Part shown: positions 31-9,920 of the stretch, piece by piece
How positions within the stretch are numbered: the first letter of the stretch is position 1
Layout: every line of letters starts with the position of its first letter
Source of the DNA: a virus
Taxonomy: Duplodnaviria; Heunggongvirae; Uroviricota; Caudoviricetes
Length of the DNA: 9,920 nucleotides
Strand: one strand, 5' to 3'
Virus record (IMG/VR): IMGVR_UViG_2671180283_000021
Notes under the pieces: generated by a model
What the model saw: the letters and a program-made list of their open reading frames with translations, nothing else
What the model was told of the DNA's origin: nothing
Databases searched by the model: none
Program-made: the position numbers and the translations under genes

Positions 31-1644
31 TTATTTATTGGTGAGTACTACGTTCCATGGCAGGAGTTCATCAACTCGGTTGGAAGGCCATTCCGGCAGT
101 ACGCTCAGGATATGGCGCAGATACGCTTCCGGATCGATACCGTTCAGACGGCAGGTGCCGATCAGCCCGTACAACAGTGCTCCACGCTCGCCGCCGTGAT
201 CGCTGCCAAAGAACATAAAGTTTTTCTTTCCGAGACAGACTGCACGAAGCGCTCTTTCCGCAGCATTATTATCCGCCTCCGCCAGACCGTCATCACTGTA
301 ATAACAGAGGGCATCCCACTGATTCAGTACATAGCTGAACGCTTCGCCCAGTCTGGATTTTTTCGACAGCGTACCATTCTTCTCCACCATCCATTCATGC
401 AGCGACGTCAGTAACACTTTGCTTCGCTGCTGCCTGACGGCAAGACGCTCTAACTCCGGTAATCCCCGTATTTCATCCTCGATGGCGTACAGTTCACTGA
501 TTCGCTTCAGGGCTTCTTCTGCCGTCGCACTTTTGCTGCTGATGTATACATCGTGGATTTTTCGCCGGGCATGGGCCCAGCACGCAACTTCTGTCAGTGC
601 ACCACCTTCACGTTCTGCACTGAACAACCTGTCGTAACCTGTGAACGCATCCGCCTGCAGGATACCCCGGAAGGGGCGGAGGTGTTGCTCCGGGTGTTTC
701 CCCTGCCGGTTCGGCGAGTACGCGAACCAGACCGCTGGAGGAGATGACGAACCCACATTGCGATCATCCCGGACATACGTCCAGATACGCCCTGTTTTCG
801 CCTTTTTCTGACCCGGTGCCAGTACCTTTACCGGTGTGTCATCAGTGTGAACCTTGCGGGTGTTCATTACATAACGGTACAGGGCATCATTCACCGGTGT
901 CATTAACTGGCAGCACGCGTCAACCCAGTTGGAGAGTAAGGCCCGGCTCAGTTCGACACCCTGGCGGGCAAAGATTTCACTCTGACGATACAGTGGCAGA
1001 TGTTCGCAGTATTTTCCCGTTAACACGCGGGCAAGTAATCCGGGGCCCGCGATACCACGCTCTATCGGGCGGGACGGCGCCGGTGCTTCAACAATACAGT
1101 CACATTTTGTACAGGCTTTTTTTACCCGTTCTGTGCGGATCACTTTCAGGGCACTGCTCACCAGTTCCAGCTGTTCAGCGCTGACTTCCCCCAGATAATC
1201 CAGCTCACCGCCACACTCCGGGCAACAGCTTTCTTCTGGCTCCAGGCGGTGTATTTCACGGGGAAGGTGTGCCGGTAACGGACGACGATGGCGCGACTGT
1301 CGCAACTGGCGGGGAACCTGAGGATCGTCTTCCCGCCCACTGTAACGATCGCTGTCCTGTTCACGTTGTTTCAGCAGAGCCTCAGCCAGTTCAACTTCAC
1401 GACGCAGTTTTTCAGAACGGGTACCGAACAGCATCCGGCGCAGTTTTTCTATCTGAGCCCGCAGATGTTCTATTTCCCGTTCATCTTCTTCGATCTTTTC
1501 TTCGGCACGTGTCAGTGCAGAGCGCAGGAAGGCTTCCGTCTCTTCAACCAGACTCAGTTGCTGGTCTTTCTGACGGAGGGCTTCAGCCTGCTCAGAGAGC
1601 AACCTTTCCAGCTCTGCGATGCGAATGAGGTATTTCTGACTCAT
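31..1644 (-). CDS. tnpC: IS66-family transposase TnpC (ORF3, DDE transposase with zinc-finger motifs)
   Basis: 537 aa. N-terminal coiled-coil/leucine-zipper-like region (LRAQIEKLRRMLFGTRSEKL), CxxC...CxxC motifs (CCPECGG, CTKCDC), and length and organisation characteristic of IS66 TnpC. Confidence 0.9.
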   Translation of the reverse strand: MSQKYLIRIAELERLLSEQAEALRQKDQQLSLVEETEAFLRSALTRAEEKIEEDEREIEHLRAQIEKLRRMLFGTRSEKLRREVELAEALLKQREQDSDRYSGREDDPQVPRQLRQSRHRRPLPAHLPREIHRLEPEESCCPECGGELDYLGEVSAEQLELVSSALKVIRTERVKKACTKCDCIVEAPAPSRPIERGIAGPGLLARVLTGKYCEHLPLYRQSEIFARQGVELSRALLSNWVDACCQLMTPVNDALYRYVMNTRKVHTDDTPVKVLAPGQKKAKTGRIWTYVRDDRNVGSSSPPAVWFAYSPNRQGKHPEQHLRPFRGILQADAFTGYDRLFSAEREGGALTEVACWAHARRKIHDVYISSKSATAEEALKRISELYAIEDEIRGLPELERLAVRQQRSKVLLTSLHEWMVEKNGTLSKKSRLGEAFSYVLNQWDALCYYSDDGLAEADNNAAERALRAVCLGKKNFMFFGSDHGGERGALLYGLIGTCRLNGIDPEAYLRHILSVLPEWPSNRVDELLPWNVVLTNK

Positions 1645-1674
1645 GACCGTTTTTATAATGCGGTCAGGAGTTTT

Positions 1675-2025
1675 TTACAACATTGTCAGTGAGTTACGGC
1701 TGGATGTTTTTGGCTGACGCCAGTCCAGCTTATCGAGGAGCATTGCCAGTTGCGAGCGGGTAATGGATACCTTGCCGTCACGTACCGCAGGCCAGATAAA
1801 CTGGCCTTCCTCCAGGCGTTTGGTGAACAGGCACAGACCATCAGCATCAGCCCAAAGAATTTTGACGGTGTCACCCCGTCGGCCACGGAAGATAAACAGG
1901 TGACCGGAGAAGGGATTATCATTCAGCACATGTTGTACCTGTTCTCCCAGTCCGTTGAAGGATTTACGCATATCGGTAACGCCGGCAACGAGCCAGATAC
2001 GGGTACCTGATGGGAGTGAGATCAT
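1675..2025 (-). CDS. tnpB: IS66-family accessory protein TnpB (ORF2)
   Basis: 116 aa, with the characteristic small IS66 Orf2 sequence (WLVAGVTDMRKSFNGL...ILWADADGLCLFTKRLE). Sits between tnpA and tnpC, and its start overlaps the tnpA stop. Confidence 0.9.
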   Translation of the reverse strand: MISLPSGTRIWLVAGVTDMRKSFNGLGEQVQHVLNDNPFSGHLFIFRGRRGDTVKILWADADGLCLFTKRLEEGQFIWPAVRDGKVSITRSQLAMLLDKLDWRQPKTSSRNSLTML

Positions 2026-2447
2026 CTTCCCCTCCCGGTCAGTTCACGGATCAACACTGTGAGCAGCTCTGGCGATGGATTTTCCAGCGTCATGTTACCG
2101 TGACGGAATTCCACCTTGCAGGAACTGGCACTGACTCTGGTCTGAGTGGAAGTGGATAAAGACGGCGCAATGGCCGCCACAGGTTCTTTCTGCTCATCCG
2201 GCGTTATTTCTACAGGTAATAATTCAACGCCAGTGTCAGAAGAGGTCGTTACCGGAAGACGCCGCGAAACACGCCCTTCGTTCTGCCAGAGCCTGAGCCA
2301 TTTGAAAATAACATTATCATTGACGCCATTTTCACGTGCAATCTGTGCAACACAAGCTCCAGGTTGTGATGCCAGTTCCACCATACGAAGTTTGAATTCA
2401 TTCGAATAGTTTTTACGAGGTTCTTTTCGCCAGTCCTGTAATTCCAT
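2022..2447 (-). CDS. tnpA: IS66-family TnpA (ORF1, HTH DNA-binding protein)
   Basis: 141 aa, with an N-terminal HTH-like segment (YSNEFKLRMVELASQPGACVAQIARENGVNDNVIFKW). First gene of the IS66 three-ORF module. Confidence 0.85.
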   Translation of the reverse strand: MELQDWRKEPRKNYSNEFKLRMVELASQPGACVAQIARENGVNDNVIFKWLRLWQNEGRVSRRLPVTTSSDTGVELLPVEITPDEQKEPVAAIAPSLSTSTQTRVSASSCKVEFRHGNMTLENPSPELLTVLIRELTGRGR

Positions 2448-2883: not shown

Positions 2884-3762
2884 TCAGACTGCAAGATCCA
2901 AGGGAAGATCAGAAATATCCTTTAATCTTTTACCATTAACCATCACGGAAAGCATGTCAGCTGCATCGCTGAGCCCCAGTATTTCAACTGCTGATATAAG
3001 TTCATAAAGCGCAAAATGATACACGCAATCTATATCACCAGTACCAAGAGCAATAGACGCCAGACGACTTGGAGTAGGCTCAGCAGTAACAACCATTACA
3101 TGAGGGAGATTTCCCTTACGGTTGCGAATAAGATTTAATGCCTCAGAACGAGCATTCTGGGCCCGGTCGCTTCTTATTGTCCATTTGCAGGAAATACTTG
3201 CGTGTAATATTGGTTTCCCACCATTCGAACTCCTGAGAGCTGACATGCGGGTAACAGAATCATCCACCAGTAATTCAGGACTGTTGATAACTTGATCACA
3301 TTCAGGTTCTCTTTCAACAATAATATCTGGTGAAATCGTATAATCACTCCCCAGTGCAGCAGCTAGCTGAGGATTACTTTTTGCAGCACTATCCAATGCT
3401 ATAAGATGGGCATATTGTTCATATTTAGCTATCTCTAATCTGTTTCTACCAGAAACCTGATGTACATTCCATTTTCCAGGGCGTAAGTGGCTGAGTTTAA
3501 AAAAGGTTTTTTCTATAAACTCTGCGCAGATACTCTCAAACTGATTACCAGATGTTTGCCCTGCAACACGTTCACCAATCGTTTCAGCCTGCAAGAAGCG
3601 AGCAATTTCTCTTGCTATAGCTTTACTGTTTTTGTTACTGCTATCTGCGTTACTAACAACTCCGGCAGTATTAATTGTGAGCGTATTCAGTAACAATTGG
3701 GCATGAAACTCCTTTCTGGCTTCAGCAAAACCAACTATGCTGTCAACCAAATCTCCATTCAT
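2884..3762 (-). CDS. Putative type II restriction endonuclease (PD-(D/E)xK fold), partner of the adjacent C5-methyltransferase
   Basis: Lies immediately downstream of the methyltransferase. The ATG at 3762 is 13 nt after the methyltransferase stop and is preceded by AGGAAA. Candidate catalytic motifs are SPDIIVERE and SCK, with a Glu 14 residues after the Lys, a spacing I recall from the Cfr10I/NgoMIV-like family. The supplied ORF extends to 3897 but that portion overlaps the methyltransferase by 122 nt. Confidence 0.6.
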   Translation of the reverse strand: MNGDLVDSIVGFAEARKEFHAQLLLNTLTINTAGVVSNADSSNKNSKAIAREIARFLQAETIGERVAGQTSGNQFESICAEFIEKTFFKLSHLRPGKWNVHQVSGRNRLEIAKYEQYAHLIALDSAAKSNPQLAAALGSDYTISPDIIVEREPECDQVINSPELLVDDSVTRMSALRSSNGGKPILHASISCKWTIRSDRAQNARSEALNLIRNRKGNLPHVMVVTAEPTPSRLASIALGTGDIDCVYHFALYELISAVEILGLSDAADMLSVMVNGKRLKDISDLPLDLAV

Positions 3763-3775
3763 TTCTGGATTTCCT

Positions 3776-4900
3776 TCAGGCTGCTTGACTATTCTTACTG
3801 ATGTTATTCTTATACCGTCCCTGCAAAACTCCATACACATATTGTGCGATTTTTGCTGCAAATAGCGGTGGAACAGCATTCCCGATCTGCTTTGCAATCT
3901 CAGTTTTTGAACCGGTAAAAATGAAATTATCAGGAAAAGACATTAATCTCGCTGCCTCACGATGAGTTATTGGCCGATCCTCTTCCGGATGTAAATATCG
4001 CCCTTTCTCCGGTTTGAAAAACTCAGTACGAATCGTTACTGAAGGTCTGTCCCACCACAGACGTCCAAACAAATCGGTCCCTCCAGATTTCTTTTTTAGC
4101 CAGCACGCCGGGGTTATATCAGGTCTTTTTTTCTGTAAATCGAAACGGTTACCTCCTGGTGGAACCGCTTTATATCGCTCCAGAGAAACAGGTGTGGGAT
4201 TACGCCCAAAATGTAAGTTCAGCGGAGGAAGTTCATTACGAATATCAGTTCCAACAGGAGCAGGTAAGTCACCAATTGCATCACGCGTACAGACCCATTC
4301 AGGCAAAGCGACATCCTTATCAGGGGAACGATGCGTTGGTGCTGGCGGGAACGCCGGAATACTATGCACATCGAAGAGTTCTCGTTTGATACCGATTGCT
4401 ATCGTTCGTTTTCTTGTCTGAGGTACTCCATAGTCAGCAGTATTCAACACCATTGGATTAAGCAGAATAAAGCCCATGGATTTCGCTCTAAACGTAATGT
4501 CCGCAAACTCATCGCTTATCAGCAATCCGGGGACATTTTCCATGACGAACATACAAGCCCTTGAACGCTCAATGACATCCATATAAGGCTCCCACAATGC
4601 TCTTCGGTGATCACCATAACGATTCTTATTCAATAAACTGAATCCCTGACACGGGGGGCCACCTATGACCACATCAGCCTCAGGAACAGTATTGCTGGAT
4701 GCCCACTCCTCAATATTTGCCTGAACTCCATGCAAACCAAAATTGGCATTGTAGGTATTTATAGCTGCAGCATTATTATCAATAGCAAGGATACTTTCAA
4801 AGTAGTCAGACATCTCTCCATGAAGAAAACCATAAGATAATCCACCTGCCCCACAAAAGAGGTCTATCACTCTGAATTTATTTAATTCTTTCATCCGCAT
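3776..4900 (-). CDS. DNA (cytosine-5)-methyltransferase
   Basis: 374 aa with canonical C5-MTase motifs: motif I FCGAGGLSYGF, motif IV GGPPCQGFS, motif VI ENVPGL, motif X QIGNAVPP. RBS GAGG lies 7 nt upstream of the ATG at 4900. Confidence 0.92.
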   Translation of the reverse strand: MRMKELNKFRVIDLFCGAGGLSYGFLHGEMSDYFESILAIDNNAAAINTYNANFGLHGVQANIEEWASSNTVPEADVVIGGPPCQGFSLLNKNRYGDHRRALWEPYMDVIERSRACMFVMENVPGLLISDEFADITFRAKSMGFILLNPMVLNTADYGVPQTRKRTIAIGIKRELFDVHSIPAFPPAPTHRSPDKDVALPEWVCTRDAIGDLPAPVGTDIRNELPPLNLHFGRNPTPVSLERYKAVPPGGNRFDLQKKRPDITPACWLKKKSGGTDLFGRLWWDRPSVTIRTEFFKPEKGRYLHPEEDRPITHREAARLMSFPDNFIFTGSKTEIAKQIGNAVPPLFAAKIAQYVYGVLQGRYKNNISKNSQAA

Positions 4901-4983
4901 CCATATGCCTCAGATTAATGTTGAGCGTCTTACAGGACGCGTAATGTTAACTGGGGCTTTCTCTATCTGCCTTTTGGTGTTCA

Positions 4984-5008
4984 TGCCTGAGGCAGACAGC
5001 CTCAGGCA
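4984..5008. other. Perfect 9-bp-stem hairpin (TGCCTGAGG-N7-CCTCAGGCA) in the QueH/methyltransferase intergenic region
   Basis: Inverted repeat read directly from the sequence, with no adjacent U-tract on either strand. Possibly a weak terminator for the QueH-like gene or a regulatory structure. Confidence 0.35.
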
Positions 5009-5078
5009 CCCGCAGCAATTCTACTTAACTCACGTCACCTCGCCAATATGAAATCAATCAGAAAGGTGATCCATAAAA

Positions 5079-5765
5079 TCACTCCTTCTCTTCTTTTCCG
5101 TAGTGGAGTTGGCCAATTTTGATAAGAGGGCGTCCCTGAGATTTGCGGTGTAGATTGGTATCGCGCAGAGAATACACACAGCCACAATATTCCTGCTGAT
5201 AGAATTTTTCGCGCTTGCTGATTTCAATCATACGGGACGAGCCGCCCTGCTTGCGCCAGTTATAATCCCAGTACACCATACCCGGATAATGCGCAACAGC
5301 TCGCCGCCCACACTCGTTAATCTGCTGCATATTTTTCCAGCGTGAAATGCCCAGTGAACTGCTGATCACACTGAAACCATTTTCAGCAGCGTACAACGCT
5401 GTCCGCTCAAAACGCATGTCAAAACACATGGTACAACGGATCCCCCTCTCAGGCTCCCATTCCATTCCTTTGGCACGTTCAAACCAGTTGTCGGTGTCGT
5501 AATCAGCATCGATAAACGGCACGCCGTGTTGTTCAGCAAAGCGAATATTTTCATCCTTACGAATTAAATACTCTTTCTGAGGATGAATGTTCGGGTTGTA
5601 GAAAAAGATGGTGTAGTCGATTCCCGAGGCCTGAAGCGCCTCCATCACTTCACCGGAACATGGAGCACAGCAAGAGTGCAGTAGTAGTTTGTTTGCCCCG
5701 TTTGGGAGCTCCAATTTAGGCCGTTTGAAATCAGCAATAGTCATAAATATTTTTATTGGGGTCAT
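5079..5765 (-). CDS. queH: QueH-like protein (DUF208 family; epoxyqueuosine reductase QueH homolog)
   Basis: 228 aa. N-terminal motif [11 protein letters not shown] plus further conserved Cys (RCTMCF, EYCGCVY), consistent with the Fe-S cluster ligands of DUF208/QueH as I recall them. No clear SD at either candidate start (5765 or 5744). Confidence 0.6.
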
Positions 5766-5918: not shown

Positions 5919-6344
5919 CTAGTAACGTCTAAAATACCTAACATTTCCTTGATAAAATGCCAGTACACGCTGCATAGCTTCGCTCTTCCGGCACTCGCGA
6001 CAGATTATGTTTAGGCGCCTGTCGTAGCGGCGTATTTCGCCGTCTGGTAATAGCCAGATAAGGTCCGGATCAACCACAGATGGTTTCTTCAGCTTTGCCC
6101 TTGAGAGTTTTTTGCGGGCGTTTTGCCAGTCCTTGCGCGCCTGCTCAGACGGGAATACTCCGTAACCGGAATTGTAAACATCACCACTGGCGGCCAGCTC
6201 CATGCATAAACGACCGACAGACGCATGACTGACACCAATTTCATCCGATAACTGCCGAATCGTGCCTCGTCCGTTAAGGCGTACGAATTCCACGATCAGC
6301 CCTTTAATTTTTTCCCGCTCTTCTTGTGTAAAAACTTTTGCCAC
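5919..6344 (-). CDS. Hypothetical protein with N-terminal winged-helix/HTH-like segment and basic C-terminus
   Basis: 141 aa with a GTG start at 6344 preceded by a strong SD (CAGGAGGG, 4-nt spacer). HTH-like segment GTIRQLSDEIGVSHASVGRLCMELAASGDV. C-terminal CRECRK and basic residues. No family recognised. Confidence 0.45.
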   Translation of the reverse strand: MAKVFTQEEREKIKGLIVEFVRLNGRGTIRQLSDEIGVSHASVGRLCMELAASGDVYNSGYGVFPSEQARKDWQNARKKLSRAKLKKPSVVDPDLIWLLPDGEIRRYDRRLNIICRECRKSEAMQRVLAFYQGNVRYFRRY

Positions 6345-6384: not shown

Positions 6385-7347
6385 TTACCCCCTGAAGCCC
6401 GGCGGAATTTCAGTGTCCGGTTCAGAAATGTGATTCACGCAACGCTGCGCAGGTGAACGCCCCAGGCGGATAACCAGTTCATCCCATTTTTCCCGGAGTT
6501 TTGCCGGACTCATGATGTTTTTTACCCAGAACGAATCCCGCTGGAGACGCCCAAACATTTCACAAATTTGTCTGTGAGTTCTGCCATCCAGCATCCGCAT
6601 TGTGCGAACGTCATTGGCCCATGCTGTCCAGTTGGGTTCTTTCGGTCTAGTGATCTCGCCATCATCGCTGGCCGCCTGCTCGTAAAGACTCACGATTCGT
6701 CCCCAGATCCACTGTGCGCACACCAAATCTTCCTGACTTCCCCACTGGCGTTTTTTCGCACTGAACACAACCGCGTCAGGGTGTCGGGTTAAAAAATCCT
6801 GTTCAGCCATCTGCGGGTCCGGTTGCGAAGCGTCCGGACAAGAAGATCTTTTATCTGACGGATCAGGTTTTAATACTGACGGATCGGGGTCAATCATCGC
6901 CCCCCTAATCGGCAGTTTTTTATCAACAGTTGATCCATCAAAATTTAACGGGTCAACCGTTGAGGGGTCAATATTTGACGGGTCAACTGTTAACGGGTCA
7001 TTTTTTGCCGGGCTAATTTTTCTTTTCGGTTTATATGACTCACGCGCCGCCGCCGCAGCTGCTTCGAGTTTTTCCACATTAAGCCGATAGATATTGCTTA
7101 CATTACGCCCACCGACCTTACGCTCTTCCTTCGTCAGCCAGCCCTCTTTCGCCAGTTCTGCAATAGCCGATTTCACTGTGGATTCACTTCTTGCACCGAT
7201 CTGACGCCGGATAGTTTCAATGGCAGGCCATGACACGCCCTCGTCATTGCTGTAGTCTGCAAGACGGGCCATAACCGCCACCCTGGATAAGATCATGCCG
7301 GTGAAGGCGCACCCTTCCCAGACAAGACCATGAAGCTTGCTGCTCAT
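6385..7347 (-). CDS. Phage replication initiation protein: N-terminal HTH (HTH_36-like), pentapeptide-repeat linker, C-terminal DnaT-like domain
   Basis: Preferred start is the ATG at 7347, preceded by GGGGG; the supplied ORF begins at a GTG at 7362. The N-terminus (VSWPAIETIRRQIGARSESTVKSAIAELAKEGWLTKEE) resembles the replication-initiator wHTH. The C-terminus (...VNHISEPDTEIPPGFRG) closely matches what I recall of the E. coli DnaT C-terminus (...SEPDSQIPPGFRG). Internal xxVDP repeats are encoded by the iterons. Confidence 0.7.
   Translation of the reverse strand: MSSKLHGLVWEGCAFTGMILSRVAVMARLADYSNDEGVSWPAIETIRRQIGARSESTVKSAIAELAKEGWLTKEERKVGGRNVSNIYRLNVEKLEAAAAAARESYKPKRKISPAKNDPLTVDPSNIDPSTVDPLNFDGSTVDKKLPIRGAMIDPDPSVLKPDPSDKRSSCPDASQPDPQMAEQDFLTRHPDAVVFSAKKRQWGSQEDLVCAQWIWGRIVSLYEQAASDDGEITRPKEPNWTAWANDVRTMRMLDGRTHRQICEMFGRLQRDSFWVKNIMSPAKLREKWDELVIRLGRSPAQRCVNHISEPDTEIPPGFRG
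6855..7040. repeat. Putative origin of replication inside the rep gene: direct repeats, four tandem 15-bp iterons and an AT-rich tract
   Basis: CTGACGGATC occurs twice (6855..6864 and 6876..6885). Four tandem 15-bp units run from 6947 to 7006 (AACGGGTCAACCGTT, GAGGGGTCAATATTT, GACGGGTCAACTGTT, AACGGGTCATTTTTT), with the core (C/G)GGGTCA at a 15-bp period. They are followed by an AT-rich stretch (TTTTTTGCCGGGCTAATTTTTCTTTTCGGTTTATAT). The layout resembles lambda ori within gene O. Confidence 0.6.
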
Positions 7348-7369
7348 AAAACCCCCGAACACCGTGCTT

Positions 7370-7795
7370 TTAGTGCATCACCACAGCATTCCCTGCCGGG
7401 CCGCCGCGATTCATCTGGTCATACAAAACAACCGCTGACGCAACAAAATCATCGACATCCTTCACCAGCCGATCCCTCCGTTCGACGATCTCACGGTAAT
7501 ATTCAGAACTGTGGCTGCGCATACGGGCCACCAGCAAAGGCGGCATCGCCTTTTCGATCGCCGGTAACAGAGCCTGCATTTTTTCAACAGCATCAGGGGT
7601 GTCTTTATCCAGCCAACGGAAAATTTTCTGGGTATTACGGGCCAGGGCTTCCGGATGGCTGTCGTCGTACAGTTCAGGGAACGTCATCCCCAGTTCGAAA
7701 TAAGTCCGGGCTATTTCAGCTGCAGGAACTTTCTCACCATCAGGGTATGCCCAGGCATTCATCGCCATGCGGATGTGCTCATGTTTGATTTTCAT
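7370..7795 (-). CDS. ydaT: YdaT-like protein (Rac prophage YdaT family; CII-like regulator, historically annotated as putative toxin)
   Basis: 141 aa with N-terminus MKIKHEHI, matching my recollection of E. coli K-12 YdaT. Lies immediately downstream of the YdaS-like gene, overlapping it by 17 nt. Confidence 0.75.
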   Translation of the reverse strand: MKIKHEHIRMAMNAWAYPDGEKVPAAEIARTYFELGMTFPELYDDSHPEALARNTQKIFRWLDKDTPDAVEKMQALLPAIEKAMPPLLVARMRSHSSEYYREIVERRDRLVKDVDDFVASAVVLYDQMNRGGPAGNAVVMH

Positions 7796-8102
7796 GAATC
7801 ATTTGCCTCTTGATGCTTCGGGTATGATCGTTTTCGTCATTTGGTTGCTTCATCGACATATTCTGCGAATAACATGACGAGCGTCGTAAGTATGTCCAAT
7901 CAACATCAGGACGAAGTTCTTCACACAGGACACCACCTTTTGTTGCTCGTTCAATCGCAGGACATCTCTCAGCAGGTAACTGACGTACACCTTTGATCCA
8001 TTGATTTACGCTTGGAGGAGATACACCTAAAAGCCTAGCCATTGCTGATTGCCCACCGACAACAGCACAAGCTCGTTTGAATGAATAGTTATCTTTTTTC
8101 AT
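7779..8102 (-). CDS. ydaS: YdaS-like Cro-type HTH regulator
   Basis: Sequence MKKDNYSFKRACAVVGGQSAMARLLGVSPPSVNQWIKGVRQLP is a Cro/CI-type HTH. Preferred start is the ATG at 8102, with GGAG 8 nt upstream; the supplied ORF starts at a GTG at 8123. Divergent from the repressor gene. Confidence 0.8.
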   Translation of the reverse strand: MKKDNYSFKRACAVVGGQSAMARLLGVSPPSVNQWIKGVRQLPAERCPAIERATKGGVLCEELRPDVDWTYLRRSSCYSQNMSMKQPNDENDHTRSIKRQMIHENQT

Positions 8103-8129
8103 CGAATGAACTCCAAAAAACACGCAACA

Positions 8130-8159
8130 ATATTAGGTTTAGCCTAATGAAATTGTCAA
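8130..8159 (-). promoter_or_regulatory. Putative sigma70 promoter for the ydaS-ydaT-rep operon (rightward-operator analog)
   Basis: On the minus strand: -35 TTGACA (reverse complement of 8154..8159), an 18-nt spacer, and -10 TAATAT (reverse complement of 8130..8135). Overlapped by the palindrome ATTAGG-N5-CCTAAT (8132..8148). Confidence 0.5.
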
Positions 8160-8172
8160 TAGGCTATGCCTA
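8132..8172. promoter_or_regulatory. Operator cluster between ydaS-like and repressor genes
   Basis: Perfect palindromes ATTAGG-TTTAG-CCTAAT (8132..8148) and TAGGC-TAT-GCCTA (8160..8172), with a further half-site TTGCCTAA at 8190..8197. Confidence 0.55.
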
Positions 8173-8226
8173 ATACATCGAGAGTAGGGATTGCCTAACG
8201 CGATGCGCATAGGAGACTATTAAGCA

Positions 8227-8703
8227 ATGCTTAGTGGTAAAGACTTAGGCCGAGCGATAGAGCAGGCCATTAACAAAAAAATTGCATCAGGAGCCGTCAA
8301 ATCAAAGGCGGAAATCGCACGTCATTTCAAAGTCCAACCACCATCAATCCATGACTGGATTAAGAAAGGTTCGATAAGTAAAGACAAACTTCCAGAACTA
8401 TGGCGTTTCTTTTCTGATGTGGTTGGTCCAGAGCATTGGGGGCTTAACGAATACCCCATACCAACCCCATCCACTTCAGATACAAAAAGTGAACTTTTAG
8501 ACATAAACAGCCTTTATCAAGCCGCCTCTGATGAAAAAAGAGCAATTGTGGCTTTCATCTTATCTGGAAATGCTACGGAGCCTAGTTGGGTTGATCATGA
8601 CGTTCGCGCCTACATTGCCGCAATGGAAATGAAGGTAGCTAACTATCTGAAAAATCAAGAATCAAAACGGAAAAGCCAGAACATCACCAAGACAGGAACT
8701 TAA
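8227..8703 (+). CDS. racR: RacR-like prophage repressor (XRE/CI-type HTH)
   Basis: 158 aa, with an HTH segment (SKAEIARHFKVQPPSIHDWIKKG). Divergent from the ydaS/ydaT-like genes, with operators on both flanks. Length and synteny match Rac prophage racR; the symbol is assigned by context, not by sequence identity. Confidence 0.7.
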   Translation: MLSGKDLGRAIEQAINKKIASGAVKSKAEIARHFKVQPPSIHDWIKKGSISKDKLPELWRFFSDVVGPEHWGLNEYPIPTPSTSDTKSELLDINSLYQAASDEKRAIVAFILSGNATEPSWVDHDVRAYIAAMEMKVANYLKNQESKRKSQNITKTGT

Positions 8704-8717
8704 ACTTATATGGTCCG

Positions 8718-8745
8718 ACGGGAAATTCCTAGTTCCCGTTAGTTA
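8718..8745 (+). terminator. Possible weak terminator after the repressor gene
   Basis: Hairpin ACGGGAA-N8-TTCCCGT (8718..8739) followed by a T-containing but poor tract (TAGTTAA). Confidence 0.3.
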
Positions 8746-8775
8746 ACTCCTACTACCTCTCCCACAAACCATCAC

Positions 8776-8840
8776 CTATTAGGTTGCGCCCAGATTATTA
8801 GGCATAGCCTATTGACAAGTAATTAGGCATTTCCTATAGT
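8776..8840 (+). promoter_or_regulatory. Operator/promoter module (leftward-operator analog) driving the rightward small-gene operon
   Basis: Palindrome TAGGC-ATA-GCCTA (8799..8811) lies immediately upstream of -35 TTGACA (8812..8817), followed by a 17-nt spacer and -10 TATAGT (8835..8840). Positions 8797..8818 are an exact inverted copy of 8153..8174 (TTGTCAATAGGCTATGCCTAAT). Extra half-sites ATTAGG at 8778..8783 and 8822..8827. Confidence 0.55.
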
Positions 8841-9021
8841 TTTCCCATACCAACCCATCCCGTCCCACACAATACAGGGCAATACCTCGAGTTACCAGGC
8901 AGTGGTCAGGGGTTAAGTAGCCAGCCCGAGGCGTAAGAACATGACGGCAGGGTTCAACTTTAATAACTATGCAGCAGGTTTTTGTTCCGCTACCCCGGCG
9001 TTAAGGGGAAATGAGGTCAGC

Positions 9022-9174
9022 ATGGATACTATCGAGCTTGGCAACAACGAATCTCTGGTATGCGGCGTGTTTCCCAACCAGGACGGCACGTTTACCGCGA
9101 TGACATATACCAGAAGCAAAACGTTTAAAACTGAAGCTGGCGCGCGTCGCTGGTTAACCAGAAACACTGACTGA
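9022..9174 (+). CDS. Small hypothetical protein (Rac-region YdaF/YdaG-like position)
   Basis: About 50 aa from the ATG at 9022, with GAGG 5 nt upstream (MDTIELGNNESLVCGVFPNQDGTFTAMTYTRSKTFKTEAGARRWL...). The supplied ORF offers an alternative ATG at 8941 (77 aa). Its stop overlaps the next ORF. Confidence 0.4.
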   Translation: MDTIELGNNESLVCGVFPNQDGTFTAMTYTRSKTFKTEAGARRWLTRNTD

Positions 9175-9185
9175 TGAGGTTGACG

Positions 9186-9506
9186 ATGGAATTTAAAGAT
9201 TTACCAGTACCATTCCAGGAAATGGCATCGAATGTGGTTCGCTCTCAACTGGCGACTCTTGACCTGAGTACCGTAGAAAAAGAAACCATCGACAATATAT
9301 CCGGTAACGTACGCCGAGCCTTTATCGGGCTGTACGAAGAGAAGCAGCTCTCTGATAACCAGGATTTACATGAAAAATACTTCCTGGATCTAATGGACAT
9401 CATTGATAAGGGGTTTGGCTTGTTAATGAAAAAGAAAGGGATTCGAATAGAACCCCTTGAAAATTACTTTGCAACAAAAAGCATTAATTCTTTTGATTCA
9501 AAATAA
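9186..9506 (+). CDS. Hypothetical protein (AT-rich accessory gene)
   Basis: 106 aa from the ATG at 9186, with GAGG 5 nt upstream; an alternative ATG at 9174 overlaps the previous stop. AT-rich codon usage. No recognisable motif. Confidence 0.45.
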   Translation: MEFKDLPVPFQEMASNVVRSQLATLDLSTVEKETIDNISGNVRRAFIGLYEEKQLSDNQDLHEKYFLDLMDIIDKGFGLLMKKKGIRIEPLENYFATKSINSFDSK

Positions 9507-9759
9507 GAGAATTAATTACAGACTTAACATGCTCTTTCTCATGATTGAAGCTCTCATGATTGAAAGTGCCGGGTTGAAGCGAGTCGATATAATCAACAAG
9601 ACTCTGTCGTACGACTTCATTTTTATCCATAACAGATGCAAGAAATGAAATTGCTAAAAGAGTTATATCACTACGCGCCGCAGCATGTTGCAATGCTTTA
9701 TCAAAATTATTAATCTGGCGTATCAGGGAGTTAATGATTTCATCATTTTCAGTCGACAT
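9484..9759 (-). CDS. Hypothetical protein, convergent with and 3'-overlapping the 9186..9506 gene
   Basis: About 91 aa from the ATG at 9759, preceded by a strong SD (AGGAGGG, 4-nt spacer). The supplied ORF extends to 9837 without an RBS. AT-rich. No family recognised. Confidence 0.45.
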   Translation of the reverse strand: MSTENDEIINSLIRQINNFDKALQHAAARSDITLLAISFLASVMDKNEVVRQSLVDYIDSLQPGTFNHESFNHEKEHVKSVINSLILNQKN

Positions 9760-9920
9760 TTCACCCTCCTGAGGGTTGGTGATTAAGGAGTTCTCCACGG
9801 GTGAGGTGGAGTGCGTGCGCCGGACACGGGTGAGCATCCGGCACTGACAGTTTACTGAAAGGATATTTCCCTGAAAAGTCAGACCATAACGCGAAAGCGC
9901 ACGGCGAGGTAGCTGGTTCA

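Follow-up and report, generated by a model that had tools for sequence, protein, structure and literature searches.

The window, the whole 9,920-nt stretch of viral DNA that was analysed, very probably carries a Rac-type lambdoid immunity region, in which two inverted copies of one sequence on either side of the repressor gene racR are right and left operator-promoter modules like OR/PR and OL/PL of lambda. We describe the architecture of this region, its conservation, and its exchange between phages as a unit with the repressor. The architecture is ordinary for a lambdoid phage; the Rac immunity region and its left half are already known, and the right module is a prediction. RacR belongs to the small set of transcription factors that are essential in Escherichia coli K-12, and it has become a model for work on toxin-repressor switches of prophages. 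The operators between racR and ydaS are the only ones that present models of the switch take into account.

Genes of the immunity region

Judged by sequence, the window comes from E. coli and represents the immunity region of a lambdoid prophage of the Rac type; its DNA is 99.9% identical to E. coli chromosomes with an annotated racR. The racR ORF (8227..8703, + strand) encodes a prophage repressor of the CI type, 158 aa long and lacking a peptidase domain. The product scored 246.3 bits (E = 1.2e-73) with NF049929, the NCBIfam equivalog model for RacR, and so passed its curated cut-off of 200; it shares 91% identity with P0010, the cluster of K-12-type RacR, and no Pfam or PHROG family matched it.

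Divergent from racR and 124 bp away is ydaS (7779..8102, − strand), which leads the leftward operon and has its ATG at 8102 with GGAG 8 nt upstream; three to four operator sites lie in the gap between the two genes. The YdaS product, a Cro-type helix-turn-helix (HTH) protein, matches Pfam YdaS_toxin (3.8e-30) and P22_Cro (1e-8) and phrog_35, transcriptional repressor. The neighboring ydaT (7370..7795, − strand) encodes a CII-like activator (Pfam YdaT_toxin; phrog_163, CII-like transcriptional activator, 2e-47), and a replication protein gene lies with ydaS and ydaT to the left of racR. A YdaT box, ATGATT-CATGAA-AATCAA (7785..7802, − strand), straddles the ydaT start codon; it has one mismatch to TTGATT-N6-AATCAA and, on the minus strand, is the published reference ATGATT-n6-AATCAA (PMC11879457).

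On the other side, the first recognisable gene of the rightward operon is a DUF1391 (YdaF-like) gene (9019..9174, + strand; Pfam DUF1391, 9e-28; phrog_751), with the longest ORF running from 8941. It is followed by a second small gene (9174..9506, + strand; 110 aa, phrog_6937) of unknown function. A hairpin read from the sequence after the racR stop, ACGGGAA-N8-TTCCCGT (8718..8739, + strand), might be a weak terminator, an assignment of low confidence; a terminator scan did not call it, and K-12 has a similar hairpin after racR. The leader common to heteroimmune phages (8853-9011) had no Rfam match at E up to 1, and folding of 8847-9025 was no better than that of shuffles (z = +1.19); the idea of an RNA element in the leader was dropped.

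Two inverted cassettes

The earlier note had pointed to a 22-mer, TTGTCAATAGGCTATGCCTAAT, at 8153-8174 with an exact reverse complement at 8797-8818. The pair is there, and the exact inverted match is in fact 23 bp (8153-8175 and 8796-8818), flanking racR. The match was also said to extend to a flanking half-site, and it does: GCCTAAT at 8142-8148 pairs with ATTAGGC at 8822-8828, offset by one base because the spacer of the left promoter is 18 nt and that of the right promoter 17 nt. As had been noted, TAGGC-N3-GCCTA abuts TTGACA in both copies, and the −35 hexamers face away from racR (left, 8159..8154, − strand; right, 8812-8817, + strand).

The 23-bp repeat is the core of two ~47-bp cassettes that each run operator, TTGACA, operator, −10. 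Allowing up to two mismatches, TTAGGC-N3-GCCTAA occurs at five sites in the window (8133, 8159 and 8184; 8798 and 8823), all within the two patches; dinucleotide shuffles held a mean of 0.30 sites, and none of 2000 reached five. Three pairs of sites in the window are spaced 20-30 bp apart, against none in the 2000 shuffles. Two further sites are weaker, with three mismatches: the one at 8220 covers the racR ATG, and the other is at 8779. Within 7700-9920, the predicted promoters rank as the top two sigma-70 matches, both outward-facing, with 10/12 and 11/12 hexamer positions in agreement. That the repeat is a chance match is vanishingly improbable and already refuted: base composition predicts ~7e-7 such pairs in the window, the shuffles never attain the motif count, and the repeat is conserved across genera.

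Both modules share one design. A 17-bp operator, ATTAGGC-N3-GCCTAAT, ends in the TT of the consensus −35 TTGACA, and a second operator 25-26 bp away occupies the promoter spacer and contributes the opening bases of the −10. Dimers of RacR bound at both sites of a module would exclude RNA polymerase, because the operators overlap the −35, the spacer and the −10.

The left module

The left cassette is PydaST with its RacR operators, already mapped experimentally in K-12. This PR-type promoter (8130..8159, − strand) has its −35 TTGACA at 8159..8154, an 18-nt spacer and its −10 TAATAT at 8135..8130, and fires leftward; the PydaST mapped in K-12 has the same hexamers and spacing, TTGACA-18-TAATAT (PMC11879457). 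DNase I footprinting of the K-12 RacR operators gave the half-site ATTAGGC and operators of the form (T/A)TAGGC-n3-GCCTA(T/A) (PMC9638921).

Operator O1, ATTAGGTTTAGCCTAAT (8132..8148), covers the spacer and the −10. One of its half-sites has a C-to-T change at 8138 that is rare among relatives, most related contigs having a perfect TTAGGCTAAGCCTAA. O2, AATAGGCTATGCCTAAT (8158..8174), abuts and overlaps the −35 and lies inside one arm of the exact 23-bp repeat. O3, AGTAGGGATTGCCTAAC (8183..8199), has two mismatches and is kept as ATAGGAATTGCCTAA in most relatives. A weak operator with three mismatches, ATTAAGCAATGCTTAGT (8219..8235), lies over the racR start codon; its equivalent in most of 28 related loci, TTAGGCAATGCTTA(G/A) at −7, has at most two mismatches, and an operator overlapping the racR ATG has been reported for K-12 (PMC9638921). 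The left module would silence ydaS (cro-like), ydaT (cII-like) and the replication genes, and the extra sites adjoining racR (8183-8199 and over the ATG) would autoregulate racR.

The right module

The right cassette is the predicted OL/PL equivalent, a putative RacR-repressed promoter, and the prediction is well supported. The PL-type promoter (8812..8840, + strand) consists of the −35 TTGACA at 8812-8817, a 17-nt spacer and the −10 TATAGT at 8835-8840; it would fire rightward from a start site predicted near 8847. Its distal operator, ATTAGGCATAGCCTATT (8797..8813), shares its TT with the −35 and falls within the other arm of the exact 23-bp repeat, and the proximal operator, ATTAGGCATTTCCTATA (8822..8838), fills the spacer and gives the first bases of the −10. 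These are the only two good sites in the module, the proximal one with two mismatches. A third, ATTAGGTTGCGCCCAGA (8778..8794), has three mismatches and is essentially a half-site, its left half alone being good; it is nearer to consensus in some relatives (TTAGGTTACGCTTAA in loci L002 and L006).

We found no description of a right module for RacR in the searchable literature, nor the sequence of the right cassette in any searchable paper. The papers on the Rac racR-ydaS region (PMC5700373, PMC9638921, PMC11014345, PMC11879457) do not mention the downstream cassette, and two of them do not name ydaG at all; a right-hand promoter is not discussed in the OxyS/kilR paper, and a search of the sbcA literature gave nothing relevant to one. 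The same right-hand cassette is present downstream of racR in K-12 Rac, where the corresponding rightward operon continues to kilR, racC and recET. Loss of RacR in K-12 raises ydaG, ydaF, kilR, racC and recET by 40- to 70-fold or more (PMC6765115; bioRxiv 10.64898/2026.09.06.749655). Part of this rise of the rightward-equivalent genes, seen by RNA-seq, could be an indirect effect, because YdaS and YdaT are co-induced and the copy number of Rac DNA rises, transiently to as much as 9-fold higher (PMC11014345).

We infer that RacR binds the right module and represses its promoter, which would silence the early operon headed by the DUF1391 gene. Another reading makes the right copy an auxiliary operator that cooperatively aids repression of the left promoters, with no regulated promoter of its own. 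The distal sites could serve looping alone, and RacR has been reported to be octameric (PMC11014345), but the right-hand TTGACA-17-TATAGT agrees with consensus at 11 of 12 positions, both hexamers of the cassette are kept from one bacterial class to another amid varying bases, and genes on the same strand follow the module, with K-12 counterparts that are derepressed on RacR depletion. We consider the auxiliary role alone quite unlikely.

It is also very unlikely that the Cro-like YdaS, rather than RacR, is the protein that chiefly acts at the right-module sites. YdaS too is an HTH protein, and in prophage CP-933P both PaaR2 and YdaS repress PL933P (PMC8630535). The half-site here is, however, the footprinted RacR motif ATTAGGC (PMC9638921), and the cassette tracks the RacR-type N-terminal domain across taxa. 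Since a lambdoid repressor and Cro usually share operators, YdaS binding would complement RacR control of the right promoter rather than exclude it. If such control is real, a second RacR-controlled promoter a short way downstream of racR would be a direct cause of the strong derepression of kilR, racC, recET and the genes around them.

Conservation and exchange

Both cassettes are present in 78 of 80 related viral contigs, with differences concentrated in the N3 and in the inter-site spacers, which are non-contact positions. That scan covers near-identical E. coli loci only and so informs conservation within the type, not diversity. Among more diverse loci, a cassette of the form TTAGGCnnnGCCTA-TTGACA-n5-TTAGGCnnnGCCTAA-tat lies 61-1920 bp past the stop of a RacR-type repressor gene, in otherwise unrelated flanks, in E. 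coli, Mixta, Morganella, Proteus, Erwinia, Achromobacter, Burkholderia and Pigmentiphaga, that is, in Enterobacterales and Betaproteobacteria. In the 17 diverse loci with a downstream cassette, that cassette retains TTGACA and a −10 of the form TAnnnT, as it does in the 78 viral contigs. The other 11 of the 28 diverse loci have no downstream cassette within a 2.5-kb flank; there it may lie further away, or the prophage may have decayed. In the Hydrogenophaga locus (L027) the promoter-proximal operators on both sides read TAAGGC-N3-GCCTTA, and TAAGGC half-sites occur only where the recognition helix is S[LV]x, not SI[HY]. The conservation across classes provides a ready operator and promoter consensus for annotating the Rac immunity type.

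Two heteroimmune phages, Tritos and vB_EcoS-813R8, align with the window over 7381-7800 and then not at all until 8853 or 8856, where the match resumes. The mosaic delimits an exchangeable immunity module (7801..8852) of ydaS, the left cassette, racR and the right cassette. Because exactly 7801-8852 is swapped, both cassettes travel with the repressor.

A single gene flanked by inverted repeats, with a right mosaic junction only 13-16 bp beyond the right module, could also suggest the ends of a mobile or recombining cassette carrying racR, that is, terminal inverted repeats or recombination sites without a regulatory role. Yet the arms enclose racR only, with no transposase, and a target-site duplication is absent, since TAATGAAA and GTAATTAG, the sequences just outside the arms, are different; on these two grounds we rejected the mobile-element reading. 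Moreover, the left mosaic junction at 7800 is away from the left repeat, the repeat itself is a footprinted operator plus a −35, and the modules of relatives lie anywhere from 0.6 to 2.6 kb apart, separated by cargo genes. Repeats of this non-regulatory kind are highly improbable, and we retain the reading as operator-promoter modules.

The lambda-like layout that the earlier note had predicted, with operators on both sides of the repressor, is supported by the gene identities, the promoters, the agreement of the left module with the K-12 footprints (PMC9638921), the conservation of the cassettes and the module exchange. The note had identified neither the region as that of Rac nor its left half as published.

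Repressor structure and a possible loop

In the AlphaFold2 model of RacR (mean pLDDT 81) the N-terminal domain is helical (helices at 4-21, 27-33, 38-47, 52-61 and 68-71), residues 80-90 form a disordered linker, and the C-terminal domain is again helical. Top Foldseek matches in the PDB were XRE-type domains including lambda CI (1lli, 1lmb), although weak (E ≥ 0.1); a sequence search of the PDB gave nothing below E 0.6. The structural matches are consistent with the expected XRE/CI fold, if not decisive, and a published RacR model led to the same conclusion (PMC11014345). The S24 peptidase domain that marks SOS-cleavable repressors of the LexA/CI type is missing from the window RacR (no Pfam match), and Peptidase_S24 is present in several relatives that share the RacR N-terminal domain (L013, L018, L021, L022, L027 and L030).

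Size-exclusion chromatography has shown RacR to be an octamer, which its authors explain by four dimers on four adjacent intergenic sites, not by looping (PMC11014345). We propose that the octamer could instead join the two modules across the ~640 bp between them by looping the DNA, in the manner of lambda CI; the octamer would then become readable as OL-OR looping. The distal sites are 639 bp apart in the window, and the modules of relatives are separated by ~590 to 640 bp, or by up to ~2.6 kb; no helical phase of this distance is conserved among the relatives. The fullest version of the proposal is that the downstream cassette is the real OL/PL of the RacR switch, that the octamer forms as two dimers on O1 and O2 are bridged to two on the right-hand sites through the ~640-bp loop, and that a ~44-bp cassette, coupled to a single conserved 75-aa DNA-binding domain, has been kept across Gamma- and Betaproteobacteria while the C-terminal domain was swapped (helical non-cleavable oligomerisation or S24 peptidase). 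We offer this whole only tentatively, its chances being a little short of even.

Comparison with known systems

The closest system is the K-12 Rac racR-ydaS region. Its repressor is of the same family (91% identity), and it has in common with the window the half-site ATTAGGC, a PydaST with identical hexamers and spacing, the YdaT box and an operator that covers the racR ATG. The published work on it (PMC5700373, PMC9638921, PMC11014345, PMC11879457) maps only the intergenic, left-hand operators. The window represents another allele, set apart by its 107-aa YdaS, its replication module and its mutated O1.

The CP-933P switch (PaaR2/YdaS/YdaT; PR933P and PRM933P; PMC8630535) has the same gene order, with YdaS and YdaT as partners. 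It also has a second promoter, PL933P, with operators OL1-3, whose hexamers are identical to those of PR and whose operators are like those of OR; PL933P is repressed ~100-fold by PaaR2 and YdaS, and the repressor is octameric (PMC8630535). Its repressor and operator sequences are, however, unrelated to those of the window, its operators being 18-bp palindromes with the consensus GTTTAGTAA, and it carries a toxin-antitoxin pair between the repressor gene and PL, where the gap is geneless here.

From lambda the region differs in several respects. The modules are 0.64 kb apart, against ~2.3 kb; rexAB is absent, and RacR lacks an S24 autocleavage domain; good sites in the right cluster number two instead of three; and no N or nut element is evident downstream, where the leader has no significant fold. 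Conceptually the region adds nothing to the lambda paradigm. As in lambda, the repressor gene lies between two operator clusters with one recognition sequence, the outward lytic promoters are each overlapped by two adjacent operators 24-26 bp apart, and a further site autoregulates the repressor. Three marks of a lambdoid immunity region are found: divergent repressor and cro-type genes with operators between them, a second cluster with an outward promoter 3′ of the repressor gene, and exchange of the whole as a single unit.

Gene layout

The 158-aa repressor gene (racR) lies on the plus strand at 8227-8703. To its left, on the minus strand, are a YdaS/Cro-type HTH gene (8102..7779, with its ATG at 8102 and GGAG 8 nt upstream), a YdaT/CII-like gene (7795..7370), a replication-initiator-like gene (7362..6385) and a DUF977 gene (6344..5919). 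To its right, on the plus strand, are a DUF1391 (YdaF-like) gene (9019-9174) and a 110-aa phrog_6937 gene (9174-9506). The repressor passes the NCBIfam RacR equivalog model (246 bits versus a cut-off of 200) and is 91% identical to the K-12-type RacR cluster; over 7700-9300 the DNA shares 99.9% identity with many E. coli chromosomes, in which the repressor gene is annotated as racR. Gene order is shared with the K-12 Rac prophage, which, when viewed on the same strand, also has both of the operator-promoter modules described below.

Inverted repeat and operator motif

The earlier note had claimed a 22-bp sequence recurring in inverted copy across racR, and this is exact: TTGTCAATAGGCTATGCCTAAT at 8153-8174 has its reverse complement at 8797-8818. 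With a repeat finder, the exact match runs to 23 bp (8153-8175 and 8796-8818). The longer match also claimed holds in that the next half-site past this core (GCCTAAT / ATTAGGC) matches too, but exactness stops after 23 bp because the spacer lengths differ by one base. The motif TTAGGC-N3-GCCTAA, with at most two mismatches, occurs at five sites in the window, confined to a left patch (8133, 8159 and 8184) and a right patch (8798 and 8823). Weaker sites with three mismatches fall at 8220, over the racR start codon, and at 8779. A chance origin of the repeat is excluded: from base composition ~7e-7 exact 23-nt inverted pairs are expected per 9.9-kb window, and dinucleotide-preserving shuffles (n = 2000) averaged 0.30 motif sites, with 0/2000 reaching five. 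Three pairs of sites were 20-30 bp apart, versus none in the 2000 shuffles.

Promoters and shared cassette design

A promoter scan covering 7700-9920 found four sites, a total not above chance; its two best are exactly the two that the earlier note had predicted, each with a TTGACA -35 facing outward from racR. The left promoter (minus strand) reads TTGACA (8159..8154), 18 nt, TAATAT (8135..8130), matching consensus at 10/12 positions, and the right one (plus strand) TTGACA (8812-8817), 17 nt, TATAGT (8835-8840), at 11/12. On both sides the TT of the -35 is the end of the distal operator, while the proximal operator, its centre 25-26 bp from that of the distal one, occupies the spacer and gives the first three bases of the -10. 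Since this design is common to both modules, they are inverted copies of a single ~47-bp cassette.

In the left operator O1 (8132-8148), position 8138 carries a C-to-T change in the left half-site (TTAGGT). Of 80 related viral contigs, nearly all keep a perfect TTAGGC there and one has the TTAGGT variant. The change could weaken repression of PydaST, the left promoter, in this strain.

Conservation across relatives

A RacR-homologue profile retrieved 28 loci from species-representative genomes, of genera including Escherichia, Mixta, Morganella, Proteus, Erwinia and Klebsiella, together with Achromobacter, Burkholderia, Pigmentiphaga, Herbaspirillum, Hydrogenophaga and others. In most of these loci, copies of the motif stand at fixed offsets upstream of the repressor (~-67, ~-42 and -7, the last over the ATG); taken on the minus strand, they compose the same cassette, its -35 being TTGAC. 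A downstream cassette, TTAGGCnnnGCCTA-TTGACA-n5-TTAGGCnnnGCCTAA-tat on the repressor's strand, is found in 17/28 loci (16 from a first scan and one, in a Bordetella metagenome bin, from a relaxed scan). It lies 61-1920 bp beyond the repressor stop codon, in flanks unrelated between genera.

Among closely related E. coli viral contigs, 78/80 carry both cassettes, ~625 bp apart. Differences among them are many but small and are located in the flanks, the N3 spacers and the spacer between sites; half-sites, -35 and -10 are almost invariant, a pattern that indicates purifying selection on the bases predicted to contact protein and polymerase. The right copy might instead be an operator only, with no promoter role, but conservation of its -35 and -10 makes this unlikely.

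In Hydrogenophaga (locus L027) the promoter-proximal operators of both sides are TAAGGC-N3-GCCTTA. TAAGGC half-sites are confined to the eight loci whose predicted recognition helix is S[LV]x-DW rather than SI[HY]-DW, which suggests that protein and sites co-vary, among loci that are phylogenetically non-independent and where the TAAGGC loci also keep TTAGGC sites.

Five betaproteobacterial loci (L013, L015, L017, L018 and L027) hold 0.8-1.9 kb of cargo between the repressor stop and the PL-type cassette, a position equivalent to that of rexAB in lambda. The cargo of L017 (Burkholderia) is a 376-aa protein followed by two small ORFs; that of L013 and L018 is small proteins resembling membrane proteins.

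Repressor protein

An AlphaFold2 model of RacR (mean pLDDT 81) has five helices in its N-terminal domain, followed by a disordered linker at residues 80-90 and then a C-terminal domain, also helical. By fold it matches XRE-type domains in the PDB best, the N-terminal domain of lambda CI among them, at weak E-values of at least 0.1; this fits the published model and is no proof by itself. A domain search of the protein found no S24 peptidase domain, whereas one is present in several relatives from the Betaproteobacteria that share its N-terminal domain and cassettes. The ~75-aa RacR-type N-terminal domain is fused, among the repressors of loci L013-L030, to S24 C-terminal domains in many Betaproteobacteria and to a small helical RacR-type C-terminal domain in Enterobacterales, with operator and promoter cassettes unchanged across both types. 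The DNA-binding domain and its operators therefore form one conserved unit onto which varied C-terminal domains are grafted.

Exchange of the immunity module

Phages Tritos and vB_EcoS-813R8, which have other repressors, match the window over 7381-7800 (ydaT) and resume from 8853 or 8856 onward with 93-96% identity, with no match in between. ydaS and racR together with both cassettes therefore make up the exchangeable unit, whose right junction falls 13-16 bp past the -10 of the right promoter. This exchange links the right module with this repressor's specificity. Classical lambdoid imm regions are exchanged likewise. Reading the repeat as a mobile element fails: neither a transposase nor a duplication is present, and the left mosaic junction lies away from the repeat.

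That junction (7800/7801) coincides with a YdaT box, ATGATT-N6-AATCAA at 7785-7802 (minus strand). The box spans the start codon of ydaT and does not differ from the reference published for K-12. An exact 13-nt direct repeat, CCCATACCAACCC, occurs inside racR (8455-8467) and at 8844-8856, between the right -10 and the mosaic junction; it is probably fortuitous, because base composition predicts ~0.7 such repeats per window. The rightward-transcript leader (8853-9011) keeps 93-96% identity in the heteroimmune phages, and showed no significant RNA fold (z = +1.19) and no Rfam match. A 77-aa reading frame from 8941 may explain part of its conservation.

Other elements in the window

A complete IS66-family element occupies the left window edge (31-2447, minus strand), with an HTH transposase-family ORF (Pfam HTH_Tnp_1), TnpB_IS66 and a DDE_Tnp_IS66 transposase. 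In the decayed left part of the prophage, 2884-4900 (minus strand) encodes a type II restriction-modification system pairing an NgoMIV-family endonuclease (Pfam 1e-126) with a C5 cytosine methylase (4e-54); the longest ORFs of the two overlap at 3776-3897. An Rfam match to sok antitoxin RNA (RF01794) at 4831-5011 (minus strand; 61 bits versus a gathering score of 59, E 6e-12) points to a putative hok/sok-type locus that adjoins the methyltransferase gene at its 5′ end. A QueH epoxyqueuosine reductase gene (5079-5765, minus strand; Pfam 5e-66) sits between the DUF977 gene and this cargo. The exact 13-nt repeat TCTCATGATTGAA occurs twice, 15 bp apart, at 9537-9564, within an unannotated 117-aa minus-strand ORF (9484-9837) that has no match in Pfam, NCBIfam or PHROG.

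Comparison with known systems

The left half of our finding is already known, since that module has been characterised in K-12. The racR-ydaS intergenic region there holds three GCCTAA/TTAGGC repeats and gives three RacR-DNA complexes (PMC5700373). DNase I footprinting defined ATTAGGC as the half-site and (T/A)TAGGC-n3-GCCTA(T/A) as the operators, one coinciding with the ydaST promoter and another overlapping the racR ATG (PMC9638921). The mapped PydaST is TTGACA-18-TAATAT, very strong once derepressed (PMC11879457). RacR is an octamer by size-exclusion chromatography, which the authors relate to four intergenic inverted repeats; looping or distal sites are not discussed (PMC11014345). PMC9638921 and PMC11879457 do not mention ydaG, the gene just downstream of the right module, and the right-cassette sequence appears in none of the papers of the searched library.

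In the mechanism with the best support, RacR dimers on both operators of each cassette would block RNA polymerase from PydaST and from the right promoter, which is experimental for the left cassette in K-12 and which we infer for the right. Further sites adjoining racR and over its ATG would autoregulate it, as published for K-12. Promoter quality, gene orientation and K-12 RNA-seq data suggest that the early operon, which runs in racR's direction, is transcribed from the right promoter. Upon RacR depletion or interference, ydaF, ydaG, ydaE, racC, kilR, recE and recT rise 40- to 70-fold or more (PMC6765115; bioRxiv 10.64898/2026.09.06.749655); the right module would give a direct cause for kilR and recET derepression. 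It also offers a testable alternative to the current RacR octamer model. With an octameric RacR and modules ~640 bp apart, lambda-like looping between them is plausible, a proposition we would put at about an even chance.

Prophage CP-933P, which is related but heteroimmune, has a promoter, PL933P, recognised by analogy together with its operators OL1-3; this promoter is repressed ~100-fold by the repressor PaaR2 and by YdaS (PMC8630535). YdaS binding could thus be thought to replace RacR binding; it probably acts alongside it. The lambda-like layout proposed in the earlier note is supported, with outward promoters and operators on both racR flanks and the left half mapped in K-12. Its right half is a well-supported prediction of an OL/PL equivalent, for which we found no description for RacR in the searched literature, and the architecture is textbook lambdoid, within the known Rac system.
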